Assembly (NCBI GenBank): GCA_963814545.1
Contig: CAWFDC010000011.1
Location: 208,928-272,927 of the forward strand
Direction of reading: 5' to 3'
Length of the DNA stretch: 64,000 bases
Origin: an uncultured Thermoleophilia bacterium
GTDB lineage: Bacteria > Actinomycetota > Thermoleophilia > UBA2241
The notes under the pieces were generated by a model. The model was not told the origin of the DNA and searched no databases. It saw only the letters and a program-made list of their open reading frames with translations. The position numbers and the translations under genes are program-made. Of this stretch, positions 10,243-39,462 are shown piece after piece (the stretch's first letter is position 1; every line of letters starts with the position of its first letter).

Positions 10243-10264
10243 TGTCAACACTTGACAGTAGACA
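10243..10264. promoter_or_regulatory. Operator-like palindrome site A: TGTCAACACTTGACAGTAGAC
   Basis: An inverted repeat TGTCAA-N3-TTGACA sits about 208 bp upstream of the PHP gene A start. It belongs to the GACTGTCGACAGTC motif family seen at seven other promoters. Confidence 0.5.
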
Positions 10265-10359
10265 CCGCGTGCCGGAGAGGGGTCGACCGCGTCGGGCGCG
10301 AGCAGGCCTTCTGTCGAGTCCAGCGGCGCCCTCTCGAACCGGGCCCGCGGGGGAGGCGA

Positions 10360-10391
10360 CGAGGGAGGGCGCCGTCCGGCGCCCTCCCTCG
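10360..10391 (-). terminator. Perfect GC hairpin CGAGGGAGGGCGCC-gtcc-GGCGCCCTCCCTCG downstream of PHP gene B
   Basis: A 14-bp perfect inverted repeat lies 30 nt after the 10422 stop. It is paralogous to the hairpin at 8355. Confidence 0.55.
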
Positions 10392-10421
10392 TCGTTCGAT
10401 GCTTGTTCGCTGGGGTCGTGC

Positions 10422-12008
10422 TCAGTCCACGTCCACGAAAATCGGGTTCGAGTAGAACCAGAGGTCGGCCCAGCAGCGCTCGTCGTCGTTGAGCGTCGGG
10501 TTCTCGGCGGTGCCGCCGTCCTCCAGGTAGTCGGCCAGCGGATTGCCGAGCTCGTCGGTCTGGCCGGGCTCGTTGATGGGCTGGTTGGTGCCGCGCAGGC
10601 GGTAGTACATGTCCTTGTCGGCTGCGGCCACCGTGTAGGTGACGACGTTCCAGCCGTCCTCGACCACCCACTCGCTCGAGTCGAAGCTCGCGGCGATGGT
10701 CGTGGTGCTGTTGGTGTCCTTGGTCAGGTACTCCTTGTCCCGCGGGATGTAGCGCTTGCCGACCTCGCCGGCGATCAGGTCGACGTGGTCGACCTCCGGG
10801 ACGTCGCCGTGGTTGTTGACCGCCGGGCTCTTGAACTTGATGGTGATCGTGTAGCTCTCGTCGTCGTCGACCTCGAGGGTGCCGCCCATGGGGGCCGTGG
10901 CCTCACCGTCGCTCGCCCGGAAGTCGAGGCCGTCGATCAGCTGGCCCTCGACCGAGAACGAGTTGCCGGAGCGCAGGCCGGCGATGATGCCCTCGGCCGT
11001 ATAGCTATCGACCCAGGTGTGGTCCTTGGAGTACTCGCCGGGCCAGAACTCCTCTTCGGTGTTGTGGAAGTCGGAGTCGCTGAACATCCACCACTCACGA
11101 CCCTCGCCGAGCAGCGAGTCCCAGAGGCCGCCGACCTGGGCGACCATGTAGTCGGCGCCGCCGTAGGTGCGCGCCTCGAGCAGGATGCGGGGCCAGTCGA
11201 TGACGCGGCTGGCCTTCTTGTTCTTCGACACGACGTAGATCTCGTCCTCGTCGTAGCCGCCGCGCATCGGCAGCTCCTTCTGAGAGCCGGGGATGCCGCA
11301 GAAGCCGAAGGCGACGTCGGGAGCGGCGTCGTTGAACTGCCGGAGCTGGCCGACCGTCCACTTCAGCGCCCGCGACGGGTGGCTGGTGATGGCGTAGGTC
11401 TGGCCGGCGTAGTTCGCCTGCAGCCAAGAGACGGCGGCGAGCGAGCCCGTCCAGCTCGTGTTCTGCTTGGTCAGCAACTCGCCGGTAACTGCGGACTCTC
11501 CGGCGCGGCTCGTGTCGAGATCGAGCTTGTCGAACATGTACTCGAAGTCGCTCATCGCGAACGGCTCATCACCGATGATGGCGACCTTGGCCTCGTCGGC
11601 GCTGTCGACACCCCACTCGCAACCCTGGAGGACGACCTTGTCCGGATACGCGGCGCGCTGGGTCAACAGCACGGGCCAACCGTAGTCGTACACACCGGTC
11701 GGGTCGGTCAGGAACATCTGCCACATCCACACCGAGGCGGGGAGCTTCACGCCCAGCGCGTCCTTCATCGACAGGCCACCGTGGTCGGCACTCGCCATCC
11801 AGTCGAGCGCGCCGATGCCGAAGGCGTGTTCCACCAACTCGGGGAACGTAGCGTCACCGTCGGACATGCGCGTGTGACTGTGGTGGTCACCGGTCACCCA
11901 CTGACCGGCCAAGGCGTCGGGAGCGGCCGACGCTAGCGCCACCAAGAGCAGCACCACTGCGAGGGCGAGCCATCGCCACCTGACTAAGGATGCTAACGAT
12001 TGAGCCAC
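10422..12008 (-). CDS. Secreted PHP-domain metallo-phosphoesterase family protein, paralog B
   Basis: A GTG start is preceded by the strong RBS AAGGAGGGGG. The signal peptide is MAQSLASLVRWRWLALAVVLLLVALASAAPDALA, followed by GDHHSHTRMSDGD and MASADHGG. The C-terminus ERCWADLWFYSNPIFVDVD is nearly identical to paralog A. Confidence 0.55.
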   Translation of the reverse strand: MAQSLASLVRWRWLALAVVLLLVALASAAPDALAGQWVTGDHHSHTRMSDGDATFPELVEHAFGIGALDWMASADHGGLSMKDALGVKLPASVWMWQMFLTDPTGVYDYGWPVLLTQRAAYPDKVVLQGCEWGVDSADEAKVAIIGDEPFAMSDFEYMFDKLDLDTSRAGESAVTGELLTKQNTSWTGSLAAVSWLQANYAGQTYAITSHPSRALKWTVGQLRQFNDAAPDVAFGFCGIPGSQKELPMRGGYDEDEIYVVSKNKKASRVIDWPRILLEARTYGGADYMVAQVGGLWDSLLGEGREWWMFSDSDFHNTEEEFWPGEYSKDHTWVDSYTAEGIIAGLRSGNSFSVEGQLIDGLDFRASDGEATAPMGGTLEVDDDESYTITIKFKSPAVNNHGDVPEVDHVDLIAGEVGKRYIPRDKEYLTKDTNSTTTIAASFDSSEWVVEDGWNVVTYTVAAADKDMYYRLRGTNQPINEPGQTDELGNPLADYLEDGGTAENPTLNDDERCWADLWFYSNPIFVDVD

Positions 12009-12206
12009 GAGATCCCCCTCCTTCTCCTGTAGGGCTCCTGCGACAGACCGCGCCGCGCAGCGTCGGCGCTGCGGTGGCGGTCGGCCGCACCCCCCCTGCC
12101 GCTCTCTTCCTGGGCGAGCGACATACCCACACTGCGCTGCTCAAGGCTCCACACTGCAGCAGGGACGCAAGAGTCGCGCGCTGCGCCCTCAGAGTGCGTC
12201 GCCACA

Positions 12207-13374
12207 CTACCGACTGGATTGTCGACTGTCAACACTCAGCCGTCGAACGGACGATCCGCGACGGGCGGGAGCGGGTGGATGTACCCCTGGCGCGGGGCAG
12301 TGTGACGACTCCCGACGCCGGACGCCAAAGAGGCAGGCCGGGCGGCGGCGCACGCTGCGCTGCGCCGCCCGGCCTGCCTGTTGGCGCAGTCTGATGCTCA
12401 TCTTGCCCGACTTGATGACGCCCCACATCCACTCCGTCATCGCCTGCTGCTCGGCGATCAGGTCGTACCGGGTCTCGCCGCTCACGACGAGGCCGCCACA
12501 CTCGTGGTCGACGGTAAGGACCTTGTCCCGGCTCAGGATGCCGAGGACCGCCTCGGTGAGCTGCGGCAGCATCGGCTGCTTGCGGACGGCCTCCTCTTCC
12601 TCACGGTCGAGCGTGTAGGCGAGGACGTTCTTGCCGATGATGCCGTACATCTTGTCAGGCCAGACGCCGCTTCTGAGGTAGGGCCTGAGTCCCCTGAAGT
12701 CGTTCACGTACGTGACGCCAGGCTGATCCATGAGGATCGACGACGAGCCCCAGCCGCCACTGAACAGCGCCTCGGTGCCCGGGTCGTCGGGGTCCGTGTC
12801 CTGGTCCCTCAGCTGCTCGGTGATAGACACGTCGCCGCCGTCCTCCACGAGGGAGGCGAACACCGCCGGCGTCGCGTCCGAGAGCTCGAGATCGGTGACA
12901 AGGCCGGTGGCCTTGCCGACCGACTCGGCGCGCTCGAGGACGGTCTCCCACTCCTCGATCTCGCCGCTTGCCGGACTCGGGCCCATCGCGACCCAGTCGT
13001 TCCATGTCGTCATGCCCGTCGAGAGCCGTCCCTCCGGCCGCGACGTCAGTGACTGCCGTGTCGTCGGACAGAGAATCGTCAGGGTCGCCGAGCGACCTCG
13101 TGTCGGTGTTGCCCTCGCCGCCCCACGGTATGTCGTCGATCAGCAGCGAGCCGCCGTTGAGTTGCCGGCCGACCTCGAGGTGGTCGACGGCCATGCCGTC
13201 ACCGATGAAGAGCATCACGTTGTCGACGCCCTCGAGCGGCGACGATTCCGGGACCGGGCCGGCAGCAGCCGCCTTGCCCTACCCGGCGGCCAGCCCGACG
13301 GCGGTGAGCAGTGCGAGGGAGGTGACCACCGCCACGACGACCCCGAGACCGGAACGCTGATGATGCCCGCTCAT
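12207..13374 (-). pseudogene. phoA: Alkaline phosphatase (PhoA family) decayed: in-frame TAG, frameshift, active-site Ser replaced, C-terminus truncated
   Basis: The signal peptide MSGHHQRSGLGVVVAVVTSLALLTAVGLAAG is followed immediately by TAG (~13279). Next come NVMLFIGDGMAVDH (the E. coli IILLIGDGMG region) and VTDVAAGGTAL where E. coli has VTDSAASATAW, so the Ser nucleophile is Val. A frame switch near 13015 leads to GKATGLVTDLELSDATPAVFASLVE and GDVSITEQLRD, which match PhoA. The ORF ends soon after LTVDHECGG. Confidence 0.6.
12217..12235. promoter_or_regulatory. Operator-like site B: GATTGTCGACTGTCAACAC
   Basis: Tandem TGTCGAC and TGTCAAC heptads lie about 210 bp upstream of the PHP gene B start and directly after the phoA remnant. 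Confidence 0.5.
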
Positions 13375-13578
13375 CGCTTCCCTCTTCCCCTTGGCGCCGC
13401 GCATCCGGCGAAGCGGCGAGCATAGGTTCACGACACTCGCAGCGCTACGCGCAGACTTCCGATTCGGCAAGGAACGCGACACCGGCGCCTCCTTCGGCAC
13501 CGGCACGACCCGCCGTGAGAATGTCACCCGCGCTGCCCTGAGCCGACCTTGGCCATCTCGCGGTGCCCGCCCCCGCCC

Positions 13579-14079
13579 TCAGGCCGAGGCCGCCTCCTTG
13601 TCCATCTTGTCGACCTTCAGGTCGACGGCGAGCACGTGCGGGTTCTGGCAGAAGGCGATGCACTGGGGCTCGCCGTCGCAGAGGTCGCACTTGAAGGCGA
13701 CCTGCCTGTCGGGGTGCTCGTGGATGACCCCGGTGGGGCAGACCTCGTAGCACTCGCCGCAGTTCGTGCACTTCGCCTCGTCGACCGTGAGCACGTAGCC
13801 CTTGACGACCTCGCCGTGCTTCGCCTTGCCCGGGTAGTCGCCCTTGACGGTGACCGTGATCTCCTTCGTCACGATGGCGTCCTCGGGGCAGGCCTCCTGG
13901 CACTTGGCGCAGGCGGTCTGCAGGCAGGTGTGACCGCGGATCTTGCCGGTCGTCGGGTTGACCTCGGAGAACAGGCGGGCGACCGAGGGCCGGTAGGCGC
14001 CCTCGTGCTGGGCCGAGCAGGCGAGCTCGCACATGTGGCAGCCGGTGCACTTCTTCGAGCTGATCATCACGTGAGGCAT
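13579..14079 (-). CDS. Poly-[4Fe-4S] ferredoxin-like protein, probable electron-transfer partner of the oxidoreductase
   Basis: Start MPHVMISSKK has RBS GAAGGGAAG. Four Cys clusters are present: CTGCHMCELAC, CAKCQEACP, CTNCGECYEVCP and CDLCDGEPQCIAFC. It lies immediately downstream of the oxidoreductase. Confidence 0.75.
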   Translation of the reverse strand: MPHVMISSKKCTGCHMCELACSAQHEGAYRPSVARLFSEVNPTTGKIRGHTCLQTACAKCQEACPEDAIVTKEITVTVKGDYPGKAKHGEVVKGYVLTVDEAKCTNCGECYEVCPTGVIHEHPDRQVAFKCDLCDGEPQCIAFCQNPHVLAVDLKVDKMDKEAASA

Positions 14080-14113
14080 GTGATCTTCCCTTCGTCTCTC
14101 GTGGACCGGCCGG

Positions 14114-15913
14114 CTAGAGGCGCACGTCGATGCCGAGCTCTGAGAGCTTGGCCTCTGAGGGGACGCCGTGCTCGTCCCAGCCGCGGAGGGTGTAGTACTC
14201 CTGGAGGACCCGGGCGAACTCGTCGCGATCGATGACCTGACCGGCGGCTGCGCCGTCCGAGAACGGCTGCACGTGCATGCGCTCCGGCACAGTGTCATCG
14301 GCCGACGTGAGCCCCTCACGCAGGTTGAACAGGCGCCCGAGGTTCCAGATGCGCTCACCGATCTGCATCAGCTCGTCGCGCGAGAACTCCCGGGCCCAGA
14401 GATGCCGCATGAGGATGCCGATCTGCTCGAGGTCGATGGCCCAGAAGTCGCACCAGATGCCGCTGAACTTGAGCGCGAAGAAGTTCTGGCCCCCAGCCTC
14501 GGCGTTGACGACCCAATCGGCCTTGCCCTCGAAAGTGGCGGCCGGCATCGAGCCCTCGACGATCTCCTGCCCGACGGGGAACGACCGCATGTGGCAGGCG
14601 CCTCGATCGGAGGTCGCGTAGCTGAGGGCCATGCCGAAGGCGCCGCGCGGGTCGTAGCCCGGCACCTCCATGTTCTTGACCTGCATGGCGAGCTCGGGGT
14701 GGCCGTACTTCGCGGCCAGGGCTTTGGCGCCCAGCGCGAGCTCGGCGCCGATGCCCTCGCGACCTGCCATCAGCTCCGCGGCTTCCAGGTACCCCCGGGT
14801 GTCACCAAAGGCGAGACCGAACTCGGCGTAGCCCTTCTCGCAGAGGTCCATGGCGAGACCCACGACCGAGCCCGAGGAGATGGTGTCCATGCCGAGCTCG
14901 TCACAGAGCTCGTTGAACTTCATCAGGGCGTCGATGTCGTCGATGCCGCAGTTCGCGCCGCAGAGGGCGATGGTCTCGTACTCGGGGCCCTCGCCGCGCA
15001 CCTCCTTGCCGGCCCACTTCGTGGCGTGGAAGTTGCGACAGGCGATCGCGCACTGGTAGCAGGCCCGCTTCTTGGCGCGGATCTTCTGGAACGACTCCGA
15101 GTTGATCTTGTCCGCGCCCTCGAAGACGCCGGCCGAGAAGTTGCGCGTCGGCAGAGCGCCGCCGCCGTTGATCACGTCGACCAGCACCGGCGTGCCCTCT
15201 TCGTGCGCCCACAGGTTGGTGTCGGTGAGGATGTAGTCCTCGTGCATCCTGTACATCAGGTCGAGGAACGCCTTGGCGTCGCCCACCGGCACCGAGCCCG
15301 TGCCGCGGATGGCCACGGCCTTCACGTTCTTCATGCCCATGAGCGCGCCGGCCCCGCCGCGGCCGGCCTTGTGGTATTGGTCGGTCGACAGGCAGGCCCA
15401 GGGGATCCTGCTCTCACCGGCGGGTCCGATCGACAGCACCTTGGCGTCGCGGTCCAGGTCGTTGCGCAACGCCTCCTCGACCGCGGACGTCATCATGCCG
15501 AGATAGCGCCCTGCCGGCCGGAACTCGACCCCGTCGTCGCAGATCCAGACCACCGTGGGCTCAAGCGCCTCGCCCGTCAGGATGATGATGTCGTAGCCGG
15601 CGAACTTCATCTCGGGGGCGAAGGATCCGCCCACGTAGGAGTCAAGGATCGTCCCGGTCGTCGGGCTCTTGCAGCCCACCACGAGGCGCGACGACGTGGT
15701 CACGTTGGTGCCGGCGAACGGCCCAGTGACGAGCAGCAGGGGGTTGTCGGGTGATGTGGGATCAAGCCCGGGAGCGACCTCGTCCCAGAGGTAGCGAAAG
15801 AGGAGTCCCTTCCCGCCCAGGTAGAGTCGTGCCCAGTCCATGTTCAGCGGCTCGACGGCGGCGCTCTGGGCACACAGGTCGATCCTGAGCACCTTGCCGG
15901 TGTAGAAGTCCAC
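14114..15913 (-). CDS. aor: Tungsten/molybdopterin aldehyde:ferredoxin oxidoreductase (AOR family)
   Basis: The approximately 600-aa ORF has the AOR N-terminal domain (FYTGKVLRIDL...YLGGKGLLFRYL) and the family-typical Cys-rich stretch KRACYQCAIACRNFHA. It ends SEAKLSELGIDVRL. A GTG start at ~15913 follows GGAAGGAG. Confidence 0.75.
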   Translation of the reverse strand: MDFYTGKVLRIDLCAQSAAVEPLNMDWARLYLGGKGLLFRYLWDEVAPGLDPTSPDNPLLLVTGPFAGTNVTTSSRLVVGCKSPTTGTILDSYVGGSFAPEMKFAGYDIIILTGEALEPTVVWICDDGVEFRPAGRYLGMMTSAVEEALRNDLDRDAKVLSIGPAGESRIPWACLSTDQYHKAGRGGAGALMGMKNVKAVAIRGTGSVPVGDAKAFLDLMYRMHEDYILTDTNLWAHEEGTPVLVDVINGGGALPTRNFSAGVFEGADKINSESFQKIRAKKRACYQCAIACRNFHATKWAGKEVRGEGPEYETIALCGANCGIDDIDALMKFNELCDELGMDTISSGSVVGLAMDLCEKGYAEFGLAFGDTRGYLEAAELMAGREGIGAELALGAKALAAKYGHPELAMQVKNMEVPGYDPRGAFGMALSYATSDRGACHMRSFPVGQEIVEGSMPAATFEGKADWVVNAEAGGQNFFALKFSGIWCDFWAIDLEQIGILMRHLWAREFSRDELMQIGERIWNLGRLFNLREGLTSADDTVPERMHVQPFSDGAAAGQVIDRDEFARVLQEYYTLRGWDEHGVPSEAKLSELGIDVRL

Positions 15914-15978
15914 GACTGACACGCTCCTTCCGATGGGTGGTCGTGACGCGACGCACTGAGCCGGCAGCGCCAGCGGTC

Positions 15979-17120
<1,142 letters not shown>

Positions 17121-17147
17121 TGTCGCCTCCTCGTGCACCGGCCGCAG

Positions 17148-18962: not shown

Positions 18963-18964
18963 CA

Positions 18965-20087: not shown

Positions 20088-20164
20088 ATCAAACCTCCTT
20101 GGAGGGGCGTCTTCGCCGCCCATGCGTGGCGCTGAACGAAGCAGGCCTGTGCATGCTACATAGT

Positions 20165-20184
20165 CAAGTGTCGACAGTCAACGG
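20165..20184. promoter_or_regulatory. Operator-like site C: CAAGTGTCGACAGTCAACGG
   Basis: It lies 80-100 bp upstream of the potD start, in the only sizeable intergenic gap of the pot operon region. Confidence 0.5.
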
Positions 20185-20912: not shown

Positions 20913-20960
20913 GCCCGGGAGTCTGGGCGCGGCGGCGAGAGGCGGGGAAGGGGATCCGCG

Positions 20961-26467: not shown

Positions 26468-26507
26468 GGTCCCACTCGCAGGTCCTCGCTCGCGCGGCCT
26501 CCGTCAC

Positions 26508-29086: not shown

Positions 29087-29110
29087 GCGTCGACTGTCGA
29101 CAGTCTACGG
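29087..29110. promoter_or_regulatory. Operator-like site D: perfect 14-bp palindrome GACTGTCGACAGTC (29092..29105) flanked by GTCGAC/GTCTAC
   Basis: It lies 27-40 bp upstream of the grdE ATG, in the 62-bp gap between ltaE and grdE. Confidence 0.55.
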
Positions 29111-29127
29111 GCGGCCTGCCGCCGCGG

Positions 29128-30174
29128 TCAAGCTGACGCCAGACGCGCCATCGTCGCCGTCATGATCGCCGCAGCCTCCTCGATGTCGGCGTCGTCGACG
29201 TCGAGGTGCGTGACGAACCGCAGGCCGTAGGGATTGGGGTCCACCAGCAGGCCCGCCGGCGCCGCGGCCTCAGCGACTTGATCGGCGGTCAGACCCGCCG
29301 GCCGTGGGTCGGCGAGCACCATGTTCGTGTGGACGCGCGCGACGTCGACGGCGAGCCCCGGCACGGCGGCCAGTCGCTCGGCAAGACAACGCGCACGGCG
29401 ATGGTCGTCCGCGAGACGCGCGATGTTGTGCTCGAGAGCATGGAGACCGCCGGCCGCCACGATGCCTACCTGGCGCATCGCGCCGCCGAACTGCAGCCGA
29501 TAACGCACTGCGCGCCTCACGAGACGCTCGCTCCCGAGCAGGAGCGAGCCGACTGGAGCCCCTAGCCCTTTCGAGAGGCAGGCGTTCAACGAGTCGAACG
29601 GCGCCGCCAGCTCGCGCAGGGACGACCCGGTCGCGACGTGGGCGTTGAAGATGCGCGCGCCGTCGAGATGGAGCGCCAGCCCGTGGCGGTCGCAGAACGC
29701 CCGCATCTCCAGGACCTTCTCCTGCGGGTACACGACACCACCGGCGGCATTGTGGGTGTTCTCGAGGCTGACGACGCGCGTCACCGAGTCGTCGGCCTCC
29801 TCGTCGGTGCGCACGTAGAGCTCGAGTTCGCCGGAGTCGAGTGTGCCGTCCGGCGAGTCGAATTGCCGCAGCTGCAGCCCCGACAGCGCCGCCGCGGCTC
29901 CCATCTCCCACTGCACGATGTGCGACCGGGCGTGGATGAACACCTCGTCGCCGGCATCGGCCTGCACGCGCAGCGCGACCTGGTTGCTCATCGTCCCGGT
30001 CGGGAAGAAGAGCGCGGCCTCCTTGCCGAACAGCTCCGCGGCGCGCTCCTGGAGGGCGTTGACGCTCGGGTCCTCACCAGACTCATCGTCGCCCACCGGA
30101 GCTGCCGCCATCACCCGGCGCATCTCCTCGTCGGGACACGTCTTCGTGTCGCTGCGCAAGTCGATGGTCTTCAT
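29128..30174 (-). CDS. ltaE: Low-specificity L-threonine aldolase (PLP-dependent)
   Basis: Start MKTIDLRSDTKTCPDEEMRRVMAAAPVGDDESGEDPSVNALQERAAELFGKEAALFFPTGTMSNQVAL (RBS GGAGG) matches the threonine aldolase N-terminus. The later segment HLDGARIFNA also fits. Confidence 0.75.
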   Translation of the reverse strand: MKTIDLRSDTKTCPDEEMRRVMAAAPVGDDESGEDPSVNALQERAAELFGKEAALFFPTGTMSNQVALRVQADAGDEVFIHARSHIVQWEMGAAAALSGLQLRQFDSPDGTLDSGELELYVRTDEEADDSVTRVVSLENTHNAAGGVVYPQEKVLEMRAFCDRHGLALHLDGARIFNAHVATGSSLRELAAPFDSLNACLSKGLGAPVGSLLLGSERLVRRAVRYRLQFGGAMRQVGIVAAGGLHALEHNIARLADDHRRARCLAERLAAVPGLAVDVARVHTNMVLADPRPAGLTADQVAEAAAPAGLLVDPNPYGLRFVTHLDVDDADIEEAAAIMTATMARLASA

Positions 30175-30242
30175 GTCAGTGCCTGCAGCGTTTGACCTCC
30201 TGCCAGCGGATCGGGCGCGCCGCCCCACCATCCACGCAATAC

Positions 30243-30264
30243 TACTGTTGACTGTCGACACTCG
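30243..30264. promoter_or_regulatory. Operator-like site E: TACTGTTGACTGTCGACACTCG
   Basis: It lies 70-90 bp upstream of the ltaE ATG. Confidence 0.5.
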
Positions 30265-30399
30265 CAAGCATCTGCGCCTTGCGCCGGCGACCCGCGTGCG
30301 GAGCCGAGCCCGCGCCAAGTCGAGCTCCCGGTCGTCTCGAGAGAGACGACCGGCCCCCCCGCTGCCCCGAGCCGCTCCCGGCGGCCCCCGTCACTGACA

Positions 30400-31518: not shown

Positions 31519-31537
31519 GACGCGGCCGCCGCACGGA

Positions 31538-32206: not shown

Positions 32207-32307
32207 TTCGCCGACATCCTACCTTTCGAACCGTTCGCACCTCAACTGGCCGAGCGGGCGCGTCGAGAGACGCCGATCTGAATTGTCAGCATGCACGGTC
32301 ATTGATA

Positions 32308-32321
32308 GACTGTCAACAGTC
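32308..32321. promoter_or_regulatory. Operator-like site F: GACTGTCAACAGTC (near-perfect palindrome) in the gntR/aminotransferase divergent promoter
   Basis: It lies about 100 bp upstream of the gntR ATG and about 76 bp upstream of the aminotransferase ATG. A partial half-site TTGTCAGC lies at 32283. Confidence 0.55.
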
Positions 32322-32396
32322 GACGTGGAACTCGCCGACCCCGCATTCGGGCACTCACGGTGTGCGCGATACCTGGCTCGACGCAAGGAGGCAGCC

Positions 32397-33833
32397 ATGA
32401 GCGACGGGAGTACCGGCGTGAGCCGAGGGTTCCGCTTCCCGAATGTCGTCACTCGCCTCCCGGGACCGACGTCCACTCGCCTCCTCGCGACCGCAGACGC
32501 CCTGTTGTGCGGACCCTTGCGGGAGCACGTCGACGTGCCGTTCGTCGAGTCCCGCAAGGACGACTGGCTGATCGAGGACGTCGACGGCAATACGTTCGCG
32601 GACCACGTCTCCGCGTGGGGCTCGACACCGCTCGGGGGACACCCCTCGGCCGGTCGGGCGGCTGCCGAAGCGCAGGAGCGCTACGGCATGGAGATCACCG
32701 ACTACGTGATGAACGAGCCCGCGATCGCTCTGGCGCAGCGCCTCGTGGAGATAGCGCCCCCGGGCATCTCGCGCGCGGGGCCGAGCATCAGCGGCACGGA
32801 GGCGGTCGAGGCGGGCGTCAAGCTCGCTCGTGAGGCCACCGGGCGCCCCATGATCCTCGGCTTCCTCGGTCAGTACCACGGCGAGTCCACCTACCTGACC
32901 GCGGCCGCAAGCACCGACCTCTCGGAAGTGACGAGCAACAACGCGCAGTACGTCTCCGGTGTCGTCTTCGCTCCCTACCCGAACGCCTTCCGGGCGCCGT
33001 TCCACAAGGGCCCGGGCCCGTACGACGACACCCTGTACGTCGATTTCATCGAGGAGTACCTCCTCGTGCACCAGGTCGATCCCGAGCAGGTGGCCGGCGT
33101 CCTCATCGAGCCCGTGGCCGGCGAGGGCGGCATCCTGATACCGTCGAAGGCGTTCTGGTCGCGCCTCGAGGGTCTCTGCCGGCGCTACGGCTGGATGCTC
33201 ATCCTCGACGAGGTACAGACGTGCCTCGGGCGTTGCGGCGCCATGTTCGCCGCCGAGCTCTGGGACCTCGCCCCCGACATCCTCCTCATGGGGAAGGGCA
33301 TCGCCGCGGGATGTCAGCCGATCGCCGCGGTGCTCGCCACCGAGGAGGTGATGGCCGAGTCGGACGTGCACCCCGGGGGCACCTTCGCCTGGACTCCGGC
33401 GGCGTGCGCCGGGGCGCTCGCCGGCATCGACGCGATCTACAGCGAGCGCGCCCTCGAGAACGCGCGCGCCCTCGACCAGATGGCTCACGAGGAGCTGGAC
33501 CCGCTGGTCGACCGCTTCGAGCAGGTCGGGGACGTCCGCGTGATCGGAGCTTGGGTCGGGATCGAGTTCGTCACCGACAAGTCGTCCATCGCGCCGGCGC
33601 CGGCGTTCCACGCCGCGGTCCACCAGGCGCTGGTGCGCCGGGGAGTGCTCGGCATCACACAGTGGGGGAAGTGGGTCTACCGCCTGCAGCCCGCCATCAA
33701 CATGCCGCCCGAGTTGTTCCGGTGGTCCTGCCGGCAGGTCGCCGAGGCCATCGCCGAGGTGGCCGCCTGCCCGCCCGCCGAGCCCGGGCTGCTCGGTCGC
33801 TTCGACGACGGCCTCCGCCGACGCACCGGGTGA
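32397..33833 (+). CDS. Class-III (PLP) aminotransferase, GABA/putrescine/acetylornithine aminotransferase family
   Basis: ATG follows AAGGAGG. The segment ILDEVQTCLGRCGAMFA (the usual Gly of DEVQTGxGRTG replaced by Cys) and LLMGKGIAAG (Schiff-base Lys) identify the family. The 478-aa ORF is intact. Confidence 0.75.
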   Translation: MSDGSTGVSRGFRFPNVVTRLPGPTSTRLLATADALLCGPLREHVDVPFVESRKDDWLIEDVDGNTFADHVSAWGSTPLGGHPSAGRAAAEAQERYGMEITDYVMNEPAIALAQRLVEIAPPGISRAGPSISGTEAVEAGVKLAREATGRPMILGFLGQYHGESTYLTAAASTDLSEVTSNNAQYVSGVVFAPYPNAFRAPFHKGPGPYDDTLYVDFIEEYLLVHQVDPEQVAGVLIEPVAGEGGILIPSKAFWSRLEGLCRRYGWMLILDEVQTCLGRCGAMFAAELWDLAPDILLMGKGIAAGCQPIAAVLATEEVMAESDVHPGGTFAWTPAACAGALAGIDAIYSERALENARALDQMAHEELDPLVDRFEQVGDVRVIGAWVGIEFVTDKSSIAPAPAFHAAVHQALVRRGVLGITQWGKWVYRLQPAINMPPELFRWSCRQVAEAIAEVAACPPAEPGLLGRFDDGLRRRTG

Positions 33834-34300
33834 GCTCCCGGCCGCGCGTTCGTCACACGCTGGCGGGCGCCACCGCGATCATTGCGGCGGGCGTCGTCCT
33901 CGGACTGGTCGCCAACGGCGTCGCGGGCAGCGGCCTCCCTCTCGTGCGGGAGAGCGGACGCCCGGGGGAGACGGTGACCGTCGACGCGGCCCGCGGTGCC
34001 CAGCGGGCAGGAGCCGCCCTCATCGACGCTCGCCCTCGCGAAGATTACTTGAACGGACACATCGACGGCGCGATCAGCGTGCCCTTCGCCGCGCGCCAGA
34101 GCGAGCGCGATCGGCTTCGCAGTGAGCTGCCGCGGACCCGCCCGCTCATCGTGTACTGCGAAGGCGGCGACTGCCGGGCGGCCGGCGACCTGAGCGTGTG
34201 GTTGCTTGCCGGAGGTTGGCGCGACGTCCGCGTGCTGGAAGGAGGCTACCCGGTCTGGGAGGCGGCAGGGTTCCCGGTGCGCACCGGAGGGTCGCCGTGA
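33830..34300 (+). CDS. Rhodanese-domain sulfurtransferase, membrane-anchored
   Basis: A GTG start overlaps the upstream stop (GTGA). After an N-terminal TM helix come LIDARPREDYLNGHIDGAISVP and the active-site loop YCEGGDCRAA. Confidence 0.65.
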   Translation: MSSRPRVRHTLAGATAIIAAGVVLGLVANGVAGSGLPLVRESGRPGETVTVDAARGAQRAGAALIDARPREDYLNGHIDGAISVPFAARQSERDRLRSELPRTRPLIVYCEGGDCRAAGDLSVWLLAGGWRDVRVLEGGYPVWEAAGFPVRTGGSP

Positions 34301-34830
34301 CCGTGGCCGGCCAGAGCGGTCGCGGCACGCCCGTCGCCATCCGCGTGCTCCTCGACCGAAGACTGACGCTTGCGCTCCGCCTCGTCGTCGGGACGCTGTT
34401 CGTCTACGCCAGCTACGAGAGGGTGCTGGACCCCCAGCCCCTCGCCGACGCCATCGACGACTACCGGGTCCTTCCTCTCGCTCTCGTGAACCTTGCCGCC
34501 CTCACACTGCCGTGGCTCGAGATGCTCACCGGTCTCTGCCTCCTCGGCGGGCTCGGAGTCCCGGGCGCCGGCGCCGTGACGAGCGGACTCGCGGCCATGT
34601 ACTCGATCGCCATCGCCAGCGTCCTTGCGCGCGGGCTCGACATCGGCTGCGGGTGCTTCGGGGGCGATGCGCCGCTGGCATGGGACGACCTCTGGCTCCG
34701 CCTGGGCCTCCTGGCGGCGGGTTGCCAGATCGCGCTCACGGCGCCGATCGTCGACTGGCCGCTGACGGCGATCACACGCCGGGCCAGTCGTCGCCGAGGC
34801 GCCAGAGGTCCCAGGCCAGCCGGCGGATGA
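34297..34830 (+). CDS. DoxX/MauE-family membrane protein
   Basis: A GTG start overlaps the rhodanese stop (GTGA). The protein has four TM helices and the C-terminal GCGCFGG motif typical of MauE/DoxX. Confidence 0.6.
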   Translation: MTVAGQSGRGTPVAIRVLLDRRLTLALRLVVGTLFVYASYERVLDPQPLADAIDDYRVLPLALVNLAALTLPWLEMLTGLCLLGGLGVPGAGAVTSGLAAMYSIAIASVLARGLDIGCGCFGGDAPLAWDDLWLRLGLLAAGCQIALTAPIVDWPLTAITRRASRRRGARGPRPAGG

Positions 34831-35923
34831 CCAGCGCGCACCGGACGACCTCAGCCAGCGCGAGACGCTCGTCCGGACGGTGCGCGGTCGCCAGCCGCGG
34901 CCCGGGACCGAACACGACCGCCTCGGCGCCGGCCAGCTCCACCATGTTGTGAGCGTCGGTCCAGGCCGGGAACCCGAAGAGCTTCGGCTCCCGGCCGAGT
35001 GTCTCGCCGACGGCCCGCCGAACCGCGTGGACGAACGGTGCGTTCGCGGGCGTCTCCCACGCGTCGACGACTTCGATCGCCTGCACCTCGGCTTCGTGGC
35101 AGGCGGCCAGTTCCGAGAGCTCGCGCAGCACCACGCCCACAGGCAGACCGGGGGCGACGCGCACGTCGAGGTGCACGTCGGCCTGGTCAGGGACGACGTG
35201 CAGATCACTCCCGCCGTGCAGCTCCTGGACGAGAACCGCCGTCGAGACGAGCGGGTGCGCGTGACGCGCGAGTGCCAGGTCGTCCAAGGCAAGGACGAGC
35301 CGCGCCGCCTTGACCACGGCGTTGTCGCCCTGCTCCGGGAGCGACCCGTGGGCGGAACGCCCGCGCACGCGGATCATGACCTCGACCACGCCGGCCTCCG
35401 CGACGGCGAGATCGAGGCCGGTCGATTCCATGACCAGGCAGGATCGAGGGCGCAGCGAGCGCGCGAGCGCCATGGAGCCCGTCCCGCCCTCCTCCTCGTC
35501 GACGGTGAGCCCGAGGCTGAGCGGCAGATCGTCGACGGGCACACCGGCCGCTCGGGCGAGGAGCAGTCCTAGCAGCGCCGCGGTGACGCTTCCCTTGTCG
35601 TCCGCCGCGCCGAGGCCCCACACCTCCCCCCCGACGACGCGAGCCCTGCCGTCCCACCGCCAGGTCGGTCTGATCGTGTCCACGTGGGCGACGATCGCGA
35701 GACGAGGCCCGACTGGGCACCCGATGACCAAGTCGTCGCAGCCGCTTTCCACTGAAAGACGACGTGTCACCAGTCCGAGCTGGAGGGCGCGGGCCTCCAG
35801 GTAGTCGACGACGGCCTTCTCGTCACCCGACGGGGACGGGATCTCGATGAGACGCACGAGCTCCTCGAGCGCCCACGCCTCCGCCCGGGCCAGCTCATCG
35901 GCCTCGGGCGGCGGCAGGGACAT
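34772..35923 (-). CDS. M20-family metallopeptidase/deacylase (ArgE/DapE-like)
   Basis: MSLPPPEADELARAEAWALEELVRLIEIPSPSGDE, AHVDTI, GAADDKGS and EEGG are M20 metal-ligand motifs. The 383-aa ORF is intact. Its 3' end overlaps the convergent DoxX gene by about 59 nt. Confidence 0.7.
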   Translation of the reverse strand: MSLPPPEADELARAEAWALEELVRLIEIPSPSGDEKAVVDYLEARALQLGLVTRRLSVESGCDDLVIGCPVGPRLAIVAHVDTIRPTWRWDGRARVVGGEVWGLGAADDKGSVTAALLGLLLARAAGVPVDDLPLSLGLTVDEEEGGTGSMALARSLRPRSCLVMESTGLDLAVAEAGVVEVMIRVRGRSAHGSLPEQGDNAVVKAARLVLALDDLALARHAHPLVSTAVLVQELHGGSDLHVVPDQADVHLDVRVAPGLPVGVVLRELSELAACHEAEVQAIEVVDAWETPANAPFVHAVRRAVGETLGREPKLFGFPAWTDAHNMVELAGAEAVVFGPGPRLATAHRPDERLALAEVVRCALVIRRLAWDLWRLGDDWPGV

Positions 35924-35970
35924 CCCTGCCGCCTTCAGGCTCGGGTGTCCTTCCTCCTCGCACGCCTGCG

Positions 35971-36339
35971 TCACTCGGCCGCCGGCAACTCGATGTGATA
36001 CCCCTTGACGATCGTCTCGTGCACCGTCCACACGCTGCGATAACCGGCGGCGAAGACGCAGACATCGCCGGCCTCGACGTCGAACGGCGCGCTGCCGTCG
36101 TCGGGCGCGACCGTCATGCGCCCGGCGAGCACCACGAAAGTCTCGTCGCCGTCCATCACGTCGTGGAACACGCCCGGAGTCACGCTCCAGATACCGCTGA
36201 ACACGCGCTCGTCGGCAGAGACGTAGAGGTCGTGACTCATCATCCGCGGCGATCCTTCGATGACCGCCCCGGGCGCGAAGTCCTCGGGTTCCAGCGGTAC
36301 GCTGGCGGCGCTGCCGATCGCGGGCAGGGCACTCATCAT
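35971..36339 (-). CDS. Cupin-domain protein (cupin_3 / DUF861-like)
   Basis: The 122-aa protein has ATGATG overlapping the upstream stop. A small beta-barrel motif GDETFVVLAGRMTV...GDVCVFAAG is present. Confidence 0.55.
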   Translation of the reverse strand: MMSALPAIGSAASVPLEPEDFAPGAVIEGSPRMMSHDLYVSADERVFSGIWSVTPGVFHDVMDGDETFVVLAGRMTVAPDDGSAPFDVEAGDVCVFAAGYRSVWTVHETIVKGYHIELPAAE

Positions 36340-37991
36340 TCGCCACCCGAGGGCTTGCGCACGAGCTTCCTCTTCTTCGCGTCGCGAAGCACCTCGTTGG
36401 CGCAGTTCGTCCCATTGGCGCCGGAGATGCCGCCGCCGGGGTGGGTGCCGGCGCCGCACAGATAGAGGTTGCGGACGGGCATCCGGTAGCTGGCCCAGCC
36501 GCGTACCGGGCGCATGATGAACATCTGGTGATCGCCCATGTCGCCATGCAACGCATGGCCGCCTGTGGCGTTGAAGAGGCGCTCCATGTCGAGCGGCGAG
36601 AGCACCTGCCGGTGTTCGATCATGCCGTCGAGCCCGGGGAAGTACTCGCAGAGCTGCTTGACGCAGCGGTCGGCGACCTCGTCGATGATGTCGTCCCACT
36701 TCGAGCCGTCACGCAACGTGTAGGGCTGCGAGTTCATGTCGATCGTCATGATGTGCTTGCCCTCGGGCGCCATGGACGGGTCGAACACGGTGGGGAAGCA
36801 GCACTCGACGTGAGGATGCTCCCTGGCCGGGATCCCGGCGCGCGCCTCGGCCTGGTTCAGGTCCATCAGCTGGATCGACGAGGTCACCTCGATGATGCTG
36901 CGGTGGTAGCTCTGCACACCGTCTCCGTCGTTGAGGGCGGGGAAGGCCAGCTTGGGCAGAGCTCCCAATGCGAGGTTCACCTTGATGCTCGTGCCGTCGG
37001 TGATGAACGTCTTCAGGGAGCTGCAGAAGCCTGGCTCGAGGTTCGCCTCGCCGACGAGCCCGAGCATCGTCGTCTTGGGGTCGGCGTTCGAGACCACCAG
37101 GCCGGCCTCTATCACTTCACCGTCTGCCAGCAGAACGCCGGTCGCCGCCCCGCCGGTGACGATGACTTGTTCCACGGGGGCGCTCGTGCGGACCTCGCCG
37201 CCGGCCTCGCGGACGGCGTCTGCCATCAGCCGGCCCAGCGTGCCGATGCCGCCGCGCACGAAGCCCCACTTGCGGACGCCGCCACCCACCTCGGAGGACG
37301 CGTACTCGTGCAGGAGCGTGTATGCGGTGCCCGGCGTCGACGGCCCCGAGACCGAGTCGTTGATCGAGAACCACCCGAGACCCGCTTTGACCTCTTCGGA
37401 CTCGAAGTACTCGTCGAGGTAGGTCGCGCTGGACACCATCATGAGGTGGTAGGCGTCCAGCAACAGCTTCCGGTTCTTCAGCGCCGTACCACCCAGCCGG
37501 CCCATGCGGCCCCAGTCGGCGAGGCTCTTCATGCGGAGGTCGGGCGGCGTGAGTCCGAACAACGGCCCGAACCAGCGCGCGATCCGGGTCAGACCCTCCT
37601 CGAACCTGGGGTAGGCGGCGGCGTCCTTCTTCGAGAAGCGGCCTACCTCCCTTGCGGCCTCGGAGGCGTGCTCTTCCATCCAGAAGTGGGCTCCGCTCGA
37701 ATAGACGTTGAGATTGGGGCCGCAGGCGTCGACATACAGGCCGCGCTCGGCGAGCCGCATGTCGCGCCAGATGTGCTCGCCCAGCATGGCCAGCACGTAG
37801 GCCCCCGTTGATGCGCGAAAACCGGGGGCGAACTCCTCGGTGACGGCCATGCCGCCGACCATCTCGCGACGCTCAAGGACCAGCGTGCGGAGCCCCCCGC
37901 GGGCGAGGTAGAACGCCGCCACCAGACCGTTGTGGCCGCCGCCGATCACCACCGCGTCGTATCGCCGATCGGTCGGGGTCACGCTGCTCAT
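36336..37991 (-). CDS. FAD-dependent oxidoreductase, phytoene-desaturase/amine-oxidase (CrtI-like) family
   Basis: N-terminal YDAVVIGGGHNGLVAAFYLARGGLRTLVLE (GxGxxG). The 551-aa ORF is intact. Confidence 0.65.
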   Translation of the reverse strand: MSSVTPTDRRYDAVVIGGGHNGLVAAFYLARGGLRTLVLERREMVGGMAVTEEFAPGFRASTGAYVLAMLGEHIWRDMRLAERGLYVDACGPNLNVYSSGAHFWMEEHASEAAREVGRFSKKDAAAYPRFEEGLTRIARWFGPLFGLTPPDLRMKSLADWGRMGRLGGTALKNRKLLLDAYHLMMVSSATYLDEYFESEEVKAGLGWFSINDSVSGPSTPGTAYTLLHEYASSEVGGGVRKWGFVRGGIGTLGRLMADAVREAGGEVRTSAPVEQVIVTGGAATGVLLADGEVIEAGLVVSNADPKTTMLGLVGEANLEPGFCSSLKTFITDGTSIKVNLALGALPKLAFPALNDGDGVQSYHRSIIEVTSSIQLMDLNQAEARAGIPAREHPHVECCFPTVFDPSMAPEGKHIMTIDMNSQPYTLRDGSKWDDIIDEVADRCVKQLCEYFPGLDGMIEHRQVLSPLDMERLFNATGGHALHGDMGDHQMFIMRPVRGWASYRMPVRNLYLCGAGTHPGGGISGANGTNCANEVLRDAKKRKLVRKPSGGE

Positions 37992-39287
37992 AGGTTCCTC
38001 CTGGAATCCGGGGAGGTCTTGCCGCCGTTCGACGGGTCGACCCTGTCGTCGAAGTACACGGCCGGCGCTGGTGGGCGCAGGCAGTGGGGCATCTGCATGG
38101 CCTGGTTGTAGCCTCCGACGTTGATGCAGGCGACGATCTCACCCTCCTCGACCTCCGGGAATGGGTAGTCCTCGGCCCAGAGGTCGTCGCCCTCGTTGAT
38201 GTGGCCGGTGATCGTGGTCGCCACGGTGCGTGGGGCATCCGCGCGCCCGCAGACGACGTACTCGAACGGGGCGTCGTAGATGAAGCGGTCGTTCATGACG
38301 TTCCAGCCCATGTCGAGGCCGACGAAGCGCGAGCCCATGCGATCCTCGACCGTCACGACCTCGCCGAGCAGGACGGCCGCCTCCTTCACGAGGTAGTCGC
38401 CGGGTTCGACGATCACGGTCACGCCCAGGGCGGCGAGGTGCTTCGCCAGCATCGCCGCCCAGGCGTCCACGTCGAGAGAGACGTCGCCCGGCTGCCATGG
38501 GCACGCCGAGACCACCGCCGACATTCAGGTTCTGTATCGGGCAACCCTCGGCGCGTGCGGCGCGGACCATGGCGGCGGCACGCTCCACGGCGACTTCGAA
38601 CGCTGGCAGAGCCTCCGTCAGGTACCCGTCGCCGACATGGAAGTGGACCGTATCGACGATGAGTCCGTGGCGCCGGGCCAGCGCCACTGCCTCACCCAGC
38701 TGCTCCGGGTAGATGCCGAACTTCGTCGGGCGGCGACTGCTGTAGAGCGACTCGTTATCGCCGCGCCAAGCCGCGCCGGCGCGAGGGTTGACCCGCAGCC
38801 CGATGGTGCGACCCGGCGCACGCCTGCCGACACGCGAGATCTGGGTGAGGAGGTCGAGGTTCAGGTGCACGGCGTGCGCGAGGATGACGTCGAGATCGCG
38901 ATCGCTCAGATTGGTGCCCGTGTAGCTGATCTCGCCCGCGTGCCAGCCGTGCTCGAGGCCGTGCAGCAGTTCTCCCGGCGAGCAGACGTCGAGGCCTACG
39001 CTCGCGGCCGTGCCGGGCGCGCCGAGGGCGCGCACGAAGGCGAGCACTTCTGATTCGCGTTGTGCCTTCAGGGCGAGAAGCACCCGGCGCCGCAGGCCGG
39101 CCCGTTCGAGAGCGACCTGCAGCGAAGCGACCTGATCGCCGACGCGCTGCAGGTCGAACACGTAGACCGGCGTCCCCTGGGTGCGCGCGATCGACTCGGC
39201 GTCGCGGCCGGCGACCTGAAGCCGCCCGTCGCTCACTTCGAGACCGGGTCGCACCCAGAAGTCGCGCTCGCCTCCCGTGACGGCCAT
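37988..39287 (-). CDS. PLP-dependent Orn/Lys/Arg/DAP decarboxylase (fold-type III), one frameshift near 38508
   Basis: The N-terminus from ATG 39287 (RBS GGAAGGA) runs ...HFHVGDGY...NLNVGGGLGV. It then continues in another frame as PWQPGDVSLDVDAWAAML...EYVVCGRADA...CINVGGYNQAM (37988..38524 ORF). The junction has an extra C in a CCC run. Confidence 0.65.
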
Positions 39288-39334
39288 GCGTGGTAGCTCC
39301 TTCCCTGTGAACGCTCTTCACGCTAGAGCACAAG

Positions 39335-39353
39335 ACTGTCGACTGTCAACAAC
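39335..39353. promoter_or_regulatory. Operator-like site G: GACTGTCGACTGTCAACAA
   Basis: It lies 48-66 bp upstream of the decarboxylase ATG. Confidence 0.5.
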
Positions 39354-39443
39354 TGGCCCAGACGCGCCTCCCGCGTTGGAGCGATGCGCATCGCGCGCAC
39401 GACAGGACGGCCGTCATTGACGACGCAGCCGCTCGTTTTGTAG

Positions 39444-39462
39444 ACTGTTGACCGTCAACGGC
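39444..39462. promoter_or_regulatory. Operator-like site H: GACTGTTGACCGTCAACGG
   Basis: It lies 20-38 bp upstream of the larA-like ATG at 39482. Confidence 0.5.

Follow-up and report, generated by a model that had tools for sequence, protein, structure and literature searches.

Eight conserved palindromes as predicted operators of a local GntR/FCD regulator at a selenoprotein reductase locus of an uncultured Thermoleophilia bacterium

Background

Operator motifs of the FadR subfamily of GntR regulators have TKGT/ACMA boxes, in some groups with a 2-nt GT-AC spacing, and commonly include further half-sites, weaker ones, at a distance of 7-12 nt from the centre (Suvorova et al. 2015; PMC4494728). 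In the same study, the helix VSRGP(V/L)REA occurs in the PhnR and PrpR groups, with predicted sites ATTGTYRACAAT and, for PrpR, ACTGTYRACAGT; its supplementary table lists ATTGTTGACAAT, GTAAACTGTTGACAGTCTAC and GTAAACTGTT-GACAGTCTAC as predicted PhnR sites. E. coli NanR, likewise a member of the FadR subfamily, binds three tandem GGTATA repeats (PMC4494728). Among the named systems, PhnR of the Burkholderia/Polaromonas type (TIGR03338), a GntR/FCD regulator of 2-aminoethylphosphonate utilisation, is the best match of the GntR protein considered here. This protein is encoded in a 64-kb stretch of DNA from an uncultured Thermoleophilia bacterium (assembly GCA_963814545.1, contig CAWFDC010000011.1, positions 208,928 to 272,927), the whole of which is referred to as the window, and eight copies of a palindrome of related architecture precede the transcription units of the 35-kb block around its gene.

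These eight palindromes are very probably the operators of the local, autoregulated GntR/FCD repressor, which would hold 9-10 transcription units off until an effector binds to its FCD domain. The evidence comprises the architecture and statistics of the sites, their conservation in relatives and their association with gntR in distant loci. Site scans covered local DNA, i.e., the window and the retrieved loci (L numbers).

Results and discussion

Architecture and placement of the sites

Each of the eight sites (A-H) forms a 20-bp palindrome of three palindromic hexamers at a spacing of 7 bp (GTMKAC-W-GTYRAC-W-GTMKAC), and the similarity between sites stops at 20 bp. A first-pass annotation, made from the letters of this DNA, had proposed eight recurring 14-bp palindromes at promoters; all eight are present at or within a few bases of where they had been placed. 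The 14-bp dyad is real as the core (the inner 14 bp of each site, GAC-W-GTYRAC-W-GTC) of what is in full the three-hexamer palindrome, and site A exists as well, having been mis-phased by one heptad. A search with the 14-mer allowing up to 2 mismatches yields matches at 12217, 20166, 29092, 30250, 32308, 39334 and 39443. The consensus GAC-T-GT-CG-AC-A-GTC, with a GT-AC spacing of x = 2, conforms to the FadR-subfamily operator formula NyGT-Nx-ACNy (x = 2-3; PMC4494728), bearing out the resemblance to GntR-family operators noticed earlier.

In the window, with a guanine plus cytosine (G+C) content of 70.8%, the exact two-hexamer pattern GTYRACNGTYRAC occurs in 7 copies, versus a mean of 0.25 (maximum 2) in 300 third-order Markov simulations. 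When spacings of 6-30 are compared among the 161 GTYRAC hexamers, pairs are in excess at spacing 7 alone; spacings 9 and 12 rank next with 3 pairs each, probably reflecting codon periodicity. All seven GTYRACNGTYRAC copies lie in the non-coding DNA, which makes up ~15% of the window, as the first-pass annotation had it in stating that no site falls within coding regions; site B, however, overlaps the end of a frameshifted open reading frame (ORF). With the full matrix built from the eight sites, these score 24-33 bits, the next independent position 9.4 bits. In leave-one-out scoring each site reaches 18-31 bits and thus exceeds all background positions (best background 9.6-13.6 bits), and the matrix scan yielded no ninth site anywhere in the 64-kb window. 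Site-to-start-codon distances are 23-209 bp, agreeing with the 20-210 bp given before. Together, the sites head 9-10 transcription units and cover every gene between 8.4 and 43.6 kb, with none beyond this block.

The regulator

The gntR gene (31538-32206, minus strand) encodes a 222-aa GntR/FCD regulator of the FadR subfamily, the proposed binder of the sites. [quoted passage not shown] Profile matches to solved FCD regulators include 7xp0, 2hs5 and 3ihu, with 7xp0 and 2hs5 among the closest. In 39 homologues D133, H137 and H203 are invariant and H181 is found in at least 90%; the D-x3-H...H...H residues align with D..FH, eH and H in structure 7xp0. From FCD structures generally, we take the Asp-x3-His, His and His of this domain to be metal ligands. 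The gene is, as annotated before, the only one of the GntR family in the window and also the sole transcription factor gene within the regulated block; two OmpR-type response regulators and one ArsR protein are encoded in the window, all outside the block.

Downstream, gntR is probably co-transcribed with a PotD-type binding-protein gene (30400-31518). A hairpin with a perfect 11-bp stem (CCGGTCGTCTC-GAGAG-GAGACGACCGG, 30328-30354) lies between the end of this unit and operator E; it is kept with changes in relatives, lacks a T-tract and may represent a terminator or an RNA-stability element.

Conservation in relatives and co-occurrence with gntR

Syntenic contigs encode GntR homologues with 98% (L084/L085), 79% (L083), 78% (L081) and 69% (L009) identity. 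Sites D-H are found at the same promoters in these five contigs, in flanks that have diverged, and in five-way alignments 72-90% of the site columns are invariant versus 21-39% elsewhere in the same intergenic regions. For sites A-C, contigs L086 and L087 were retrieved via homologues of the PHP-type protein; sites C and B are present at orthologous positions in both and site A in L086.

A search of a genome collection by GntR protein similarity alone provided, as the 13 best, distant loci of 42-69% identity from Thermoleophilia, Gaiellales, other Actinomycetota, one Candidatus Limnocylindrales bin and a Mycobacterium-labelled bin. Using the window-derived matrix, a site of at least 15 bits is present within 250 bp upstream of gntR in 12 of these 13 loci, in line with the autoregulation previously suggested from the position of site F in the gntR promoter; in the remaining locus (L008) a 25-bit site lies immediately downstream of gntR and ahead of a potD homologue. 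Further sites precede grdE (L002, L003, L010), the potD-type ABC operon (L001, L002, L003, L007, L010), the CrtI-like oxidoreductase gene (L001, L004, L011), the class-III aminotransferase gene (L002, L004, L011) and, in L011, the enolase/glycerate kinase genes. The distant-locus consensus, GtngAC-t-GTCGAC-a-GTcnaC, equals that of the window. The first-pass annotation had named the frequency in coding regions as a check: no window site lies in coding DNA, and across distant loci and close relatives 48 of 49 matches of at least 15 bits are non-coding according to a crude gene caller, the 49th being intergenic by the collection's own gene calls.

The association extends to more distant homologues. 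In 67 further loci (33-42% identity), a site of at least 15 bits is found upstream of the GntR homologue in 31, typically as GCAGATTGTTGACAATCTAC, while matches of this strength are otherwise rare (45 in total in 1.08 Mb). The sequence upstream of the own gene in these 31 loci is that of the PhnR family, GATTGTTGACAATC, and one of them, from Polaromonas aquatica, is a phnW-phnU2-phnT2-phnS2 / phnR-phnA-phnY cluster. In betaproteobacterial phnR loci (L017-L079; e.g., L031 9838-9922), GATTGTTGACAATC, i.e., GTAGAT-T-GTTGAC-A-ATCTAC, is located in the phnS2/phnR divergent region, as expected from the PhnR site predictions tabulated in the supplement of PMC4494728, with which it agrees.

In the reverse direction, metagenome contigs were searched for the exact 16-mer TAGACTGTCGACAGTC. 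Among the 62 contigs obtained, 5 carry a GntR homologue ~150 bp or less from the site, and these include all three contigs of at least 67% G+C; the remaining ones are mostly short, low in G+C or unrelated, and uninformative. Some metagenome contigs (44% and 63% G+C) contain GTCGAC/GTCAAC heptads, either as two perfect copies in tandem or densely clustered, in unrelated contexts (L089 1502-1541; L150 6114-6153; L122 5930-6070), and no GntR homologue was detected on these short contigs.

Since the sites are non-coding, conserved and adjoin gntR across all 13 orthologous loci, they are very probably bound by the local GntR. Together with the conserved promoters and the published helix-site predictions, this supports the proposal of the first-pass annotation that a single regulon is controlled by the local GntR/FadR-type regulator.

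Individual operators and promoter overlap

A sigma-70-like consensus scan of 20.8 kb, for which 0.3-0.5 predictions are expected per ~10-kb scan, yielded five promoters, all of which overlap a site. At A and C, a GTTGAC-W hexamer provides the -35 element; at D, F (aminotransferase side) and H, GTAGAC-T provides the -10 element (TAGACT), so that the operator spans about -13 to +7. The palindrome centre is placed at about -41.5, -27, -17.5 or -3.5 relative to the predicted starts, a variability that fits an occluding repressor and not a promoter element as such. At B and G, reading by eye suggests the same -35 arrangement as at C, and at E a -10 element (TAGTAT) in the downstream hexamer.

Operator A (GTCAACACTTGACAGTAGAC, 10244-10263), 209 bp from the likely start (10035) of the gene for secreted PHP-type hydrolase A, is rated the weakest site (24.5 bits, leave-one-out 20.1). 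Its true centre is the CTTGAC hexamer at 10251-10256, it overlaps the -35 element of the predicted promoter TTGACA-18-TATTGT (10248..10219), and it is kept in L086 at 11739. Operator B (CTGGATTGTCGACTGTCAAC, 12214-12233; 24.0 bits, leave-one-out 18.1) is located 206 bp upstream of the gene for PHP-type hydrolase B and kept in L086 at 9782 and L087 at 8174 with diverged flanks. It overlaps the final codons of a frameshifted alkaline-phosphatase-like ORF, is intergenic where the relatives' copy of that gene is intact, and appears by eye to carry a TTGACA-17-TAGTGT promoter. Operator C (GTCAAGTGTCGACAGTCAAC, 20163-20182; 28.0 bits, leave-one-out 24.7) occupies the divergent region between the minus-strand operon for the PotD-type ABC transporter, aldehyde:ferredoxin oxidoreductase and ferredoxin and the plus-strand pair of an Fe-S protein and an SDR gene; it coincides with the predicted promoter TTGACT-17-TAGCAT (20181..20153) and is kept in L086 at 924 and L087 at 600.

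Operator D (GTCGACTGTCGACAGTCTAC, 29089-29108), 24 bp upstream of grdE, is the top-scoring site (32.6 bits, leave-one-out 31.5); its GTAGAC-T hexamer constitutes the -10 element of the predicted promoter TTGACC-18-TAGACT (29131..29102), and it is kept in L081, L083, L084 and L085. Operator E (TACTACTGTTGACTGTCGAC, 30240-30259; 24.3 bits, leave-one-out 19.2) precedes the threonine-aldolase gene by 66 bp and is placed between two hexamers, TTGCGA and TAGTAT, that by eye may be those of a promoter; 15 of its 20 columns are invariant across five genomes versus 39% in the remainder of the region. Operator F (ATAGACTGTCAACAGTCGAC, 32305-32324; 30.2 bits, leave-one-out 26.4) is situated between the divergent gntR and aminotransferase genes, with 99 bp to the start of the former and 37 bp to that of the latter, and coincides with the predicted aminotransferase promoter TTGTCA-17-TAGACT (32283..32311). 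Of its columns 18/20 are invariant versus 21% in the flanks, and counterparts are found upstream of GntR orthologues in other genomes.

Operator G (CAAGACTGTCGACTGTCAAC, 39331-39350; 26.5 bits, leave-one-out 24.3), 44 bp upstream of the decarboxylase operon, is kept in five genomes together with a TTGACA-18-TAGCGT block. Operator H (GTAGACTGTTGACCGTCAAC, 39440-39459; 28.5 bits, leave-one-out 25.6), 23 bp upstream of the LarA-like gene, is likewise kept in relatives; its first hexamer is the -10 element of the predicted promoter TTGACG-18-TAGACT (39417..39446). Helical phasing of G and H as a sign of looping was considered and dropped, the spacing being 109 bp in the window but 109-113 bp in relatives.

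Proposed mechanism and alternative explanations

In the proposed mechanism, a GntR dimer would bind the central T-GTYRAC-A box via its winged helix-turn-helix domains, and the flanking hexamers at 7 bp would either extend the contact of this dimer or recruit a second one. Bound at operators that overlap the -35 or the -10/+1 region, GntR would block RNA polymerase at 9-10 units, including its own via site F. Upon binding of a small-molecule effector at the FCD metal site, GntR would be released and the whole 35-kb block switched on. The analogy with PhnR and aminoethylphosphonate makes the transported amine, or else an early catabolite, the probable effector.

Several observations weigh against this interpretation. 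The hexamers of the sites resemble promoter hexamers, so that the coincidence of sites and promoters is partly built in and the conservation could partly be promoter conservation. The -10 elements of gntR, B, E and G match the consensus poorly, and operator A is weak, centred near -41.5 and missing before the second paralogue in L087. Furthermore, two peptide patterns, one of them within the recognition helix, were used to retrieve genome loci, which share this helix by construction; several helix-sharing loci (Streptomyces, Amycolatopsis, Rhodococcus) nevertheless do not carry the motif. The poorly matching -10 elements at B, E and G, typical of activator-dependent promoters, and the position of site A ~41.5 bp upstream of the predicted start, classical for a class-II activator, could also indicate that the local GntR acts as an activator or dual regulator, at least at the sites located on or ahead of the -35 element (A, B, C and G). 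Dual roles are known in the FadR subfamily, FadR itself activating at fabA and fabB. Yet the coverage of -13 to +7 at D, F and H and of the -35 element plus spacer at B, C and G suits occlusion in both cases, catabolic FCD regulators are mostly effector-released repressors, and an autoregulatory site within a divergent region typically belongs to a repressor. Activation is accordingly judged unlikely, though it is the most probable of the alternatives considered.

Less probable still is the binding of the palindromes by a transcription factor from outside the window, with the link to gntR being coincidental. The connection with the local GntR is indeed deduced from sequence, and two OmpR-type response regulators and one ArsR protein are at hand in the window. 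These proteins use other site types, however, and in two relatives their genes lie outside the regulated block, whereas the motif tracks gntR through 13/13 orthologous loci with differing neighbours and into other phyla and fits the FadR-subfamily consensus as well as the PhnR/PrpR predictions published for the same recognition helix. Marginally less probable again is that the repeats are promoter elements (alternative sigma hexamers or unusually conserved -35/-10 boxes) rather than operators. The hexamers do contain TTGAC and TAGACT, and all promoter predictions coincide with sites, but the position of the palindrome varies relative to the starts, dyad symmetry and 7-bp periodicity are unlike RNA polymerase elements, single sites serve two divergent genes at C and at F, and the motif accompanies one transcription-factor family across phyla of very different base composition. 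GTCGAC is very common in this 71% G+C DNA (124 copies), and a crude 14-mer search with 3 mismatches is only marginally enriched, as might be expected if chance, avoidance of a restriction-modification target (GTYRAC) or a dispersed repeat or mobile element had produced the pattern. This explanation, of which the avoidance part had been raised in the first-pass annotation, has a negligible probability and is refuted by the excess of hexamer pairs at spacing 7 alone (7 vs 0.25 expected), by observed/expected ratios of 0.84-1.16 for GTYRAC hexamers (neither depleted nor enriched), and by the limit of similarity at 20 bp together with the retention of sites at orthologous promoters. Repression by the local GntR thus agrees best with the evidence.

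Genes of the regulated block

Genes were called by frame-specific G+C analysis plus Pfam/NCBIfam searches. The gene identities assigned before (PotD-type, GrdE, threonine aldolase, GntR/FCD, class-III aminotransferase, Orn/DAP decarboxylase, LarA-like and PHP-type hydrolases) were confirmed. In nearly all cases the score stays below the equivalog cut-off: this holds for the aminotransferase, the decarboxylase, the CrtI-like oxidoreductase, the M20, LarA-like and glycerate kinase proteins, GrdE and the binding proteins, but not for the GntG-family aldolase, the selenoprotein-B subfamily or reductase component C.

Site A precedes the gene for a secreted CehA/McbA (PHP-type) metallohydrolase-like protein (ORF 8416-10206, minus strand, probable start 10035), and site B that of its tandem paralogue (10422-12008, minus strand) with an operator of its own. 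The two hydrolases are 78% identical, both with a hydrophobic signal-like N-terminal segment; they match the NCBIfam CehA_McbA domain below cut-off, and close homologues in the same gene order occur in relatives. A long plus-strand ORF (8011-10026) is a shadow of the opposite-strand hydrolase gene. Between the ArsR and PHP hydrolase A genes, relatives possess an HMA P-type ATPase gene that is absent in the window (7667-8416 vs L086 13643-16464). From promoter/operator to start codon, both PHP genes have G+C-rich leaders of ~190 nt (10036-10215 and 12009-12200, minus strand), which are conserved with several predicted hairpins (L086 9812-10000 and 11775-11967; L087 8204-8392). As structured RNAs, they have no Rfam match, and 1 of 46 predicted pairs covaries in an alignment of only 5 sequences.

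Site C controls, in the prediction, two divergent units. On the minus strand (12207-20035), Pfam matches indicate a PotD-type binding protein, two permeases, an ATPase, an aldehyde:ferredoxin oxidoreductase, a 4Fe-4S ferredoxin and an alkaline-phosphatase-like protein, in a gene order intact in L086 and L087. On the plus strand (20274-21716), a QueG/RDH-like Fe-S protein is followed by an SDR, which in L086 are two distinct genes.

Site D heads the grd operon (21775-29065, minus strand) encoding GrdE, GrdB, component C, thioredoxin, GrdA, an SMP-30-like protein, an SDR and a metallo-beta-lactamase-fold protein; its gene order is kept in L083 and L084. In-frame TGA codons are present in grdB (26775-26777, minus strand; GT-U-GTGTRCGA) and grdA (24698-24700, minus strand; CFV-U-TAAGAMD). 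The UGA at CxxU and UxxCxxC motifs of GrdA and GrdB, the GrdE-type proprotein and component C together identify a glycine/sarcosine/betaine reductase operon, and the in-frame TGA at conserved selenocysteine motifs indicates that this high-G+C actinobacterial lineage encodes glycine/sarcosine/betaine-reductase-type selenoproteins. Family hits are Gly_reductase, the selenoprotein-B subfamily and reduct_C_beta, while GrdE and GrdB fall far short of the cut-off of every substrate-specific family model. The operon has one component-C gene (25151-26431, minus strand; reduct_C_beta, 509 bits), and no separate GrdD-type gene was seen in it or in relatives. A glycine riboswitch as control element of grd was considered and is unsupported, an Rfam scan having revealed no riboswitch or other RNA family in the window.

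Site E precedes the gene for a threonine-aldolase-type pyridoxal-phosphate-dependent aldolase (29128-30174, minus strand; Pfam Beta_elim_lyase), which exceeds the cut-off of the NCBIfam GntG-family aldolase (372 bits, cut-off 230). Flanking site F are, on the minus strand (30400-32206), gntR and the second PotD-type binding-protein gene (30400-31518) and, on the plus strand (32361-34830), genes for a class-III aminotransferase, a rhodanese and a MauE/DoxX-like protein. The site G unit (34772-39287, minus strand) encodes an Orn/DAP-type decarboxylase (frameshifted), a CrtI-like FAD oxidoreductase, an EutQ-like cupin and an M20 deacylase, all intact in L084, and the site H unit (39482-43577, plus strand) a LarA-like racemase (frameshifted), an enolase and a glycerate-2-kinase-like protein, all intact in L081 and L084.

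Apparent frameshifts affect the genes for thioredoxin (24830-25150), the ABC ATPase (~16600), the decarboxylase (37988-39287), the LarA-like (39482-40800) and the alkaline-phosphatase-like protein (12207-13578) and the potD N-terminus (~20090). The frameshifted genes are intact in relatives (L083, L084, L086), and the lesions are likely indel errors of a long-read assembly rather than marks of pseudogenes. A 95-nt tRNA-Ala called by ARAGORN (55040-55134) falls inside a well-supported ORF (54888-56087) and is probably a false positive.

Possible metabolic role

Across orthologous loci, the core consists of a PotD-type ABC transporter, omega/class-III aminotransferases, a CrtI-like FAD oxidoreductase, SMP-30-like and SDR proteins, and the selenoprotein reductase complex. 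Considered along with the threonine aldolase, the aldehyde:ferredoxin oxidoreductase and the unit of LarA, enolase and glycerate kinase, this core suggests that an amino-alkyl or hydroxy-amino compound may be taken up and fermented in a Stickland-like manner, with glycine or an N-substituted glycine as conceivable reductase substrate. The PhnR analogy (amine uptake, transaminase, carbonyl processing) would fit this picture, with no phosphonate-specific gene in the block. In L001 (16249-18449) and L003 (14909-17144), the last genes of the regulated potD-type ABC operon encode an omega-aminotransferase, which exceeds the cut-off of the PRK06062 subfamily, and a tartronate-semialdehyde-reductase-like dehydrogenase, which narrowly misses its cut-off, and a methylmalonate-semialdehyde dehydrogenase is encoded nearby in L001; these enzymes are hints to the substrate class.

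Going further, one may speculate that the 35-kb block represents a pathway complete in itself, selenium-dependent and so far undescribed, that occurs in soil Thermoleophilia and other Actinomycetota, combining PotD/PhnS2-like amino-alkyl uptake, a divergent reductase and a PhnR-like switch, which is possible but rather doubtful. An imported amino-alkyl compound would be converted by transamination or oxidation, and the products would yield acetyl phosphate via a divergent GrdE/GrdB-type reductase of new substrate specificity. The aldehyde:ferredoxin oxidoreductase might serve as internal electron donor in a Stickland-like balance, and a single PhnR-like repressor would sense the amine and switch the whole block. 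If true, the regulon boundaries would offer a way to the substrate.

For an uncultured soil lineage, the analysis provides a regulon map of eight predicted operators, ~33 genes and one regulator, which ties an actinobacterial (Actinomycetota) selenoprotein glycine/sarcosine-type reductase to amine uptake, transamination and secreted PHP-type hydrolases. In the searchable library, no paper was found to describe, for this lineage, a regulator of these reductase genes. The GTMKAC-W-GTYRAC-W-GTMKAC model can be used for annotating the regulon in many metagenome-assembled genomes, and the PhnR/PrpR-type recognition code is extended to another phylum. The value lies in annotation and in the pointer to an uncharacterised catabolic pathway.

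Comparison with known systems

PhnR is the best NCBIfam match of the window GntR (TIGR03338, 150.3 bits), followed by NanR (59 bits). PhnR and the window GntR share the recognition helix VSRGPVREA, and the PhnR operator, GAT-T-GTYRAC-A-ATC inside GTAGAT...ATCTAC, matches the architecture of the window sites; it is likewise located upstream of the regulator gene itself, within a divergent region that has a PotD/PhnS2-type ABC transporter and a transaminase as neighbours. On the other hand, the window GntR is only 33-40% identical to PhnR and remains below the TIGR03338 cut-off of 271.5 bits (a Polaromonas protein used as control scores 347.9 bits), its operator has C/G instead of T/A at +/-5, and eight operators are present versus one to three. 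Thus, an operator of the ATTGTYRACAAT type is found upstream of the own gene, whereas family score and neighbourhood are not those of PhnR. Wing residues and outer bases were compared for covariation between the Actinomycetota and proteobacterial groups, from which no simple rule emerged.

The regulated block contains a class-III aminotransferase, an aldehyde:ferredoxin oxidoreductase and the selenoprotein reductase complex instead; no phnW, phnX, phnA or phnY was found in it with Pfam/NCBIfam family models. Its binding proteins match PotD/YdcS and PhnS2 about equally well, in each case far below the cut-off, and a HAD hydrolase outside the block has a weak PhnX-like match (43 bits vs 219). 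A phosphonate pathway by analogy with PhnR is not supported, the phn genes being absent and the alkaline-phosphatase-like gene being PhoA-type rather than PhnA-type.

With the FadR subfamily as a whole (PMC4494728), the window sites share the T-GT-YR-AC-A core with its AC-A boxes on either side, the 2-nt GT-AC spacing, additional weaker half-sites 7 nt from the centre, and positions that are autoregulatory and ahead of catabolic operons, but they are G+C-rich rather than A/T-rich. To the TKGT/ACMA consensus, PhnR-type ATTGTTGACAAT fits exactly and the CTGT box of the window at 3/4 positions. By string search, the window orthologous group (Thermoleophilia and other Actinomycetota, grd-linked) was not found in the data set of that study. 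Literature searches with motif strings returned cloning primers only, and those for a GntR regulator with glycine reductase, or for glycine reductase in Thermoleophilia, nothing relevant.

NanR resembles the window protein in being an FCD regulator with an operator of three closely spaced hexamers, and its structures 6on4 and 6wfq are among the profile matches. However, the NanR repeats are direct, whereas the window hexamers are each palindromic and jointly form one 20-bp dyad, and the similarity is low (59 bits). DasR/HutC-type dre sites are GntR-family palindromes with GTCTAGAC-like cores that serve multi-operon catabolic regulons in high-G+C Actinomycetota. DasR differs as a HutC-subfamily member whose effector domain is of the UTRA type and whose sites have a 4-nt GT-AC spacing, as opposed to the FCD domain and 2-nt spacing found here. 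The proposed regulatory mechanism is conventional, that of a FadR-subfamily regulon with canonical operators. The operator class and its tie to this DNA-binding domain are already known as computational predictions, whereas this orthologous group and its targets are new.

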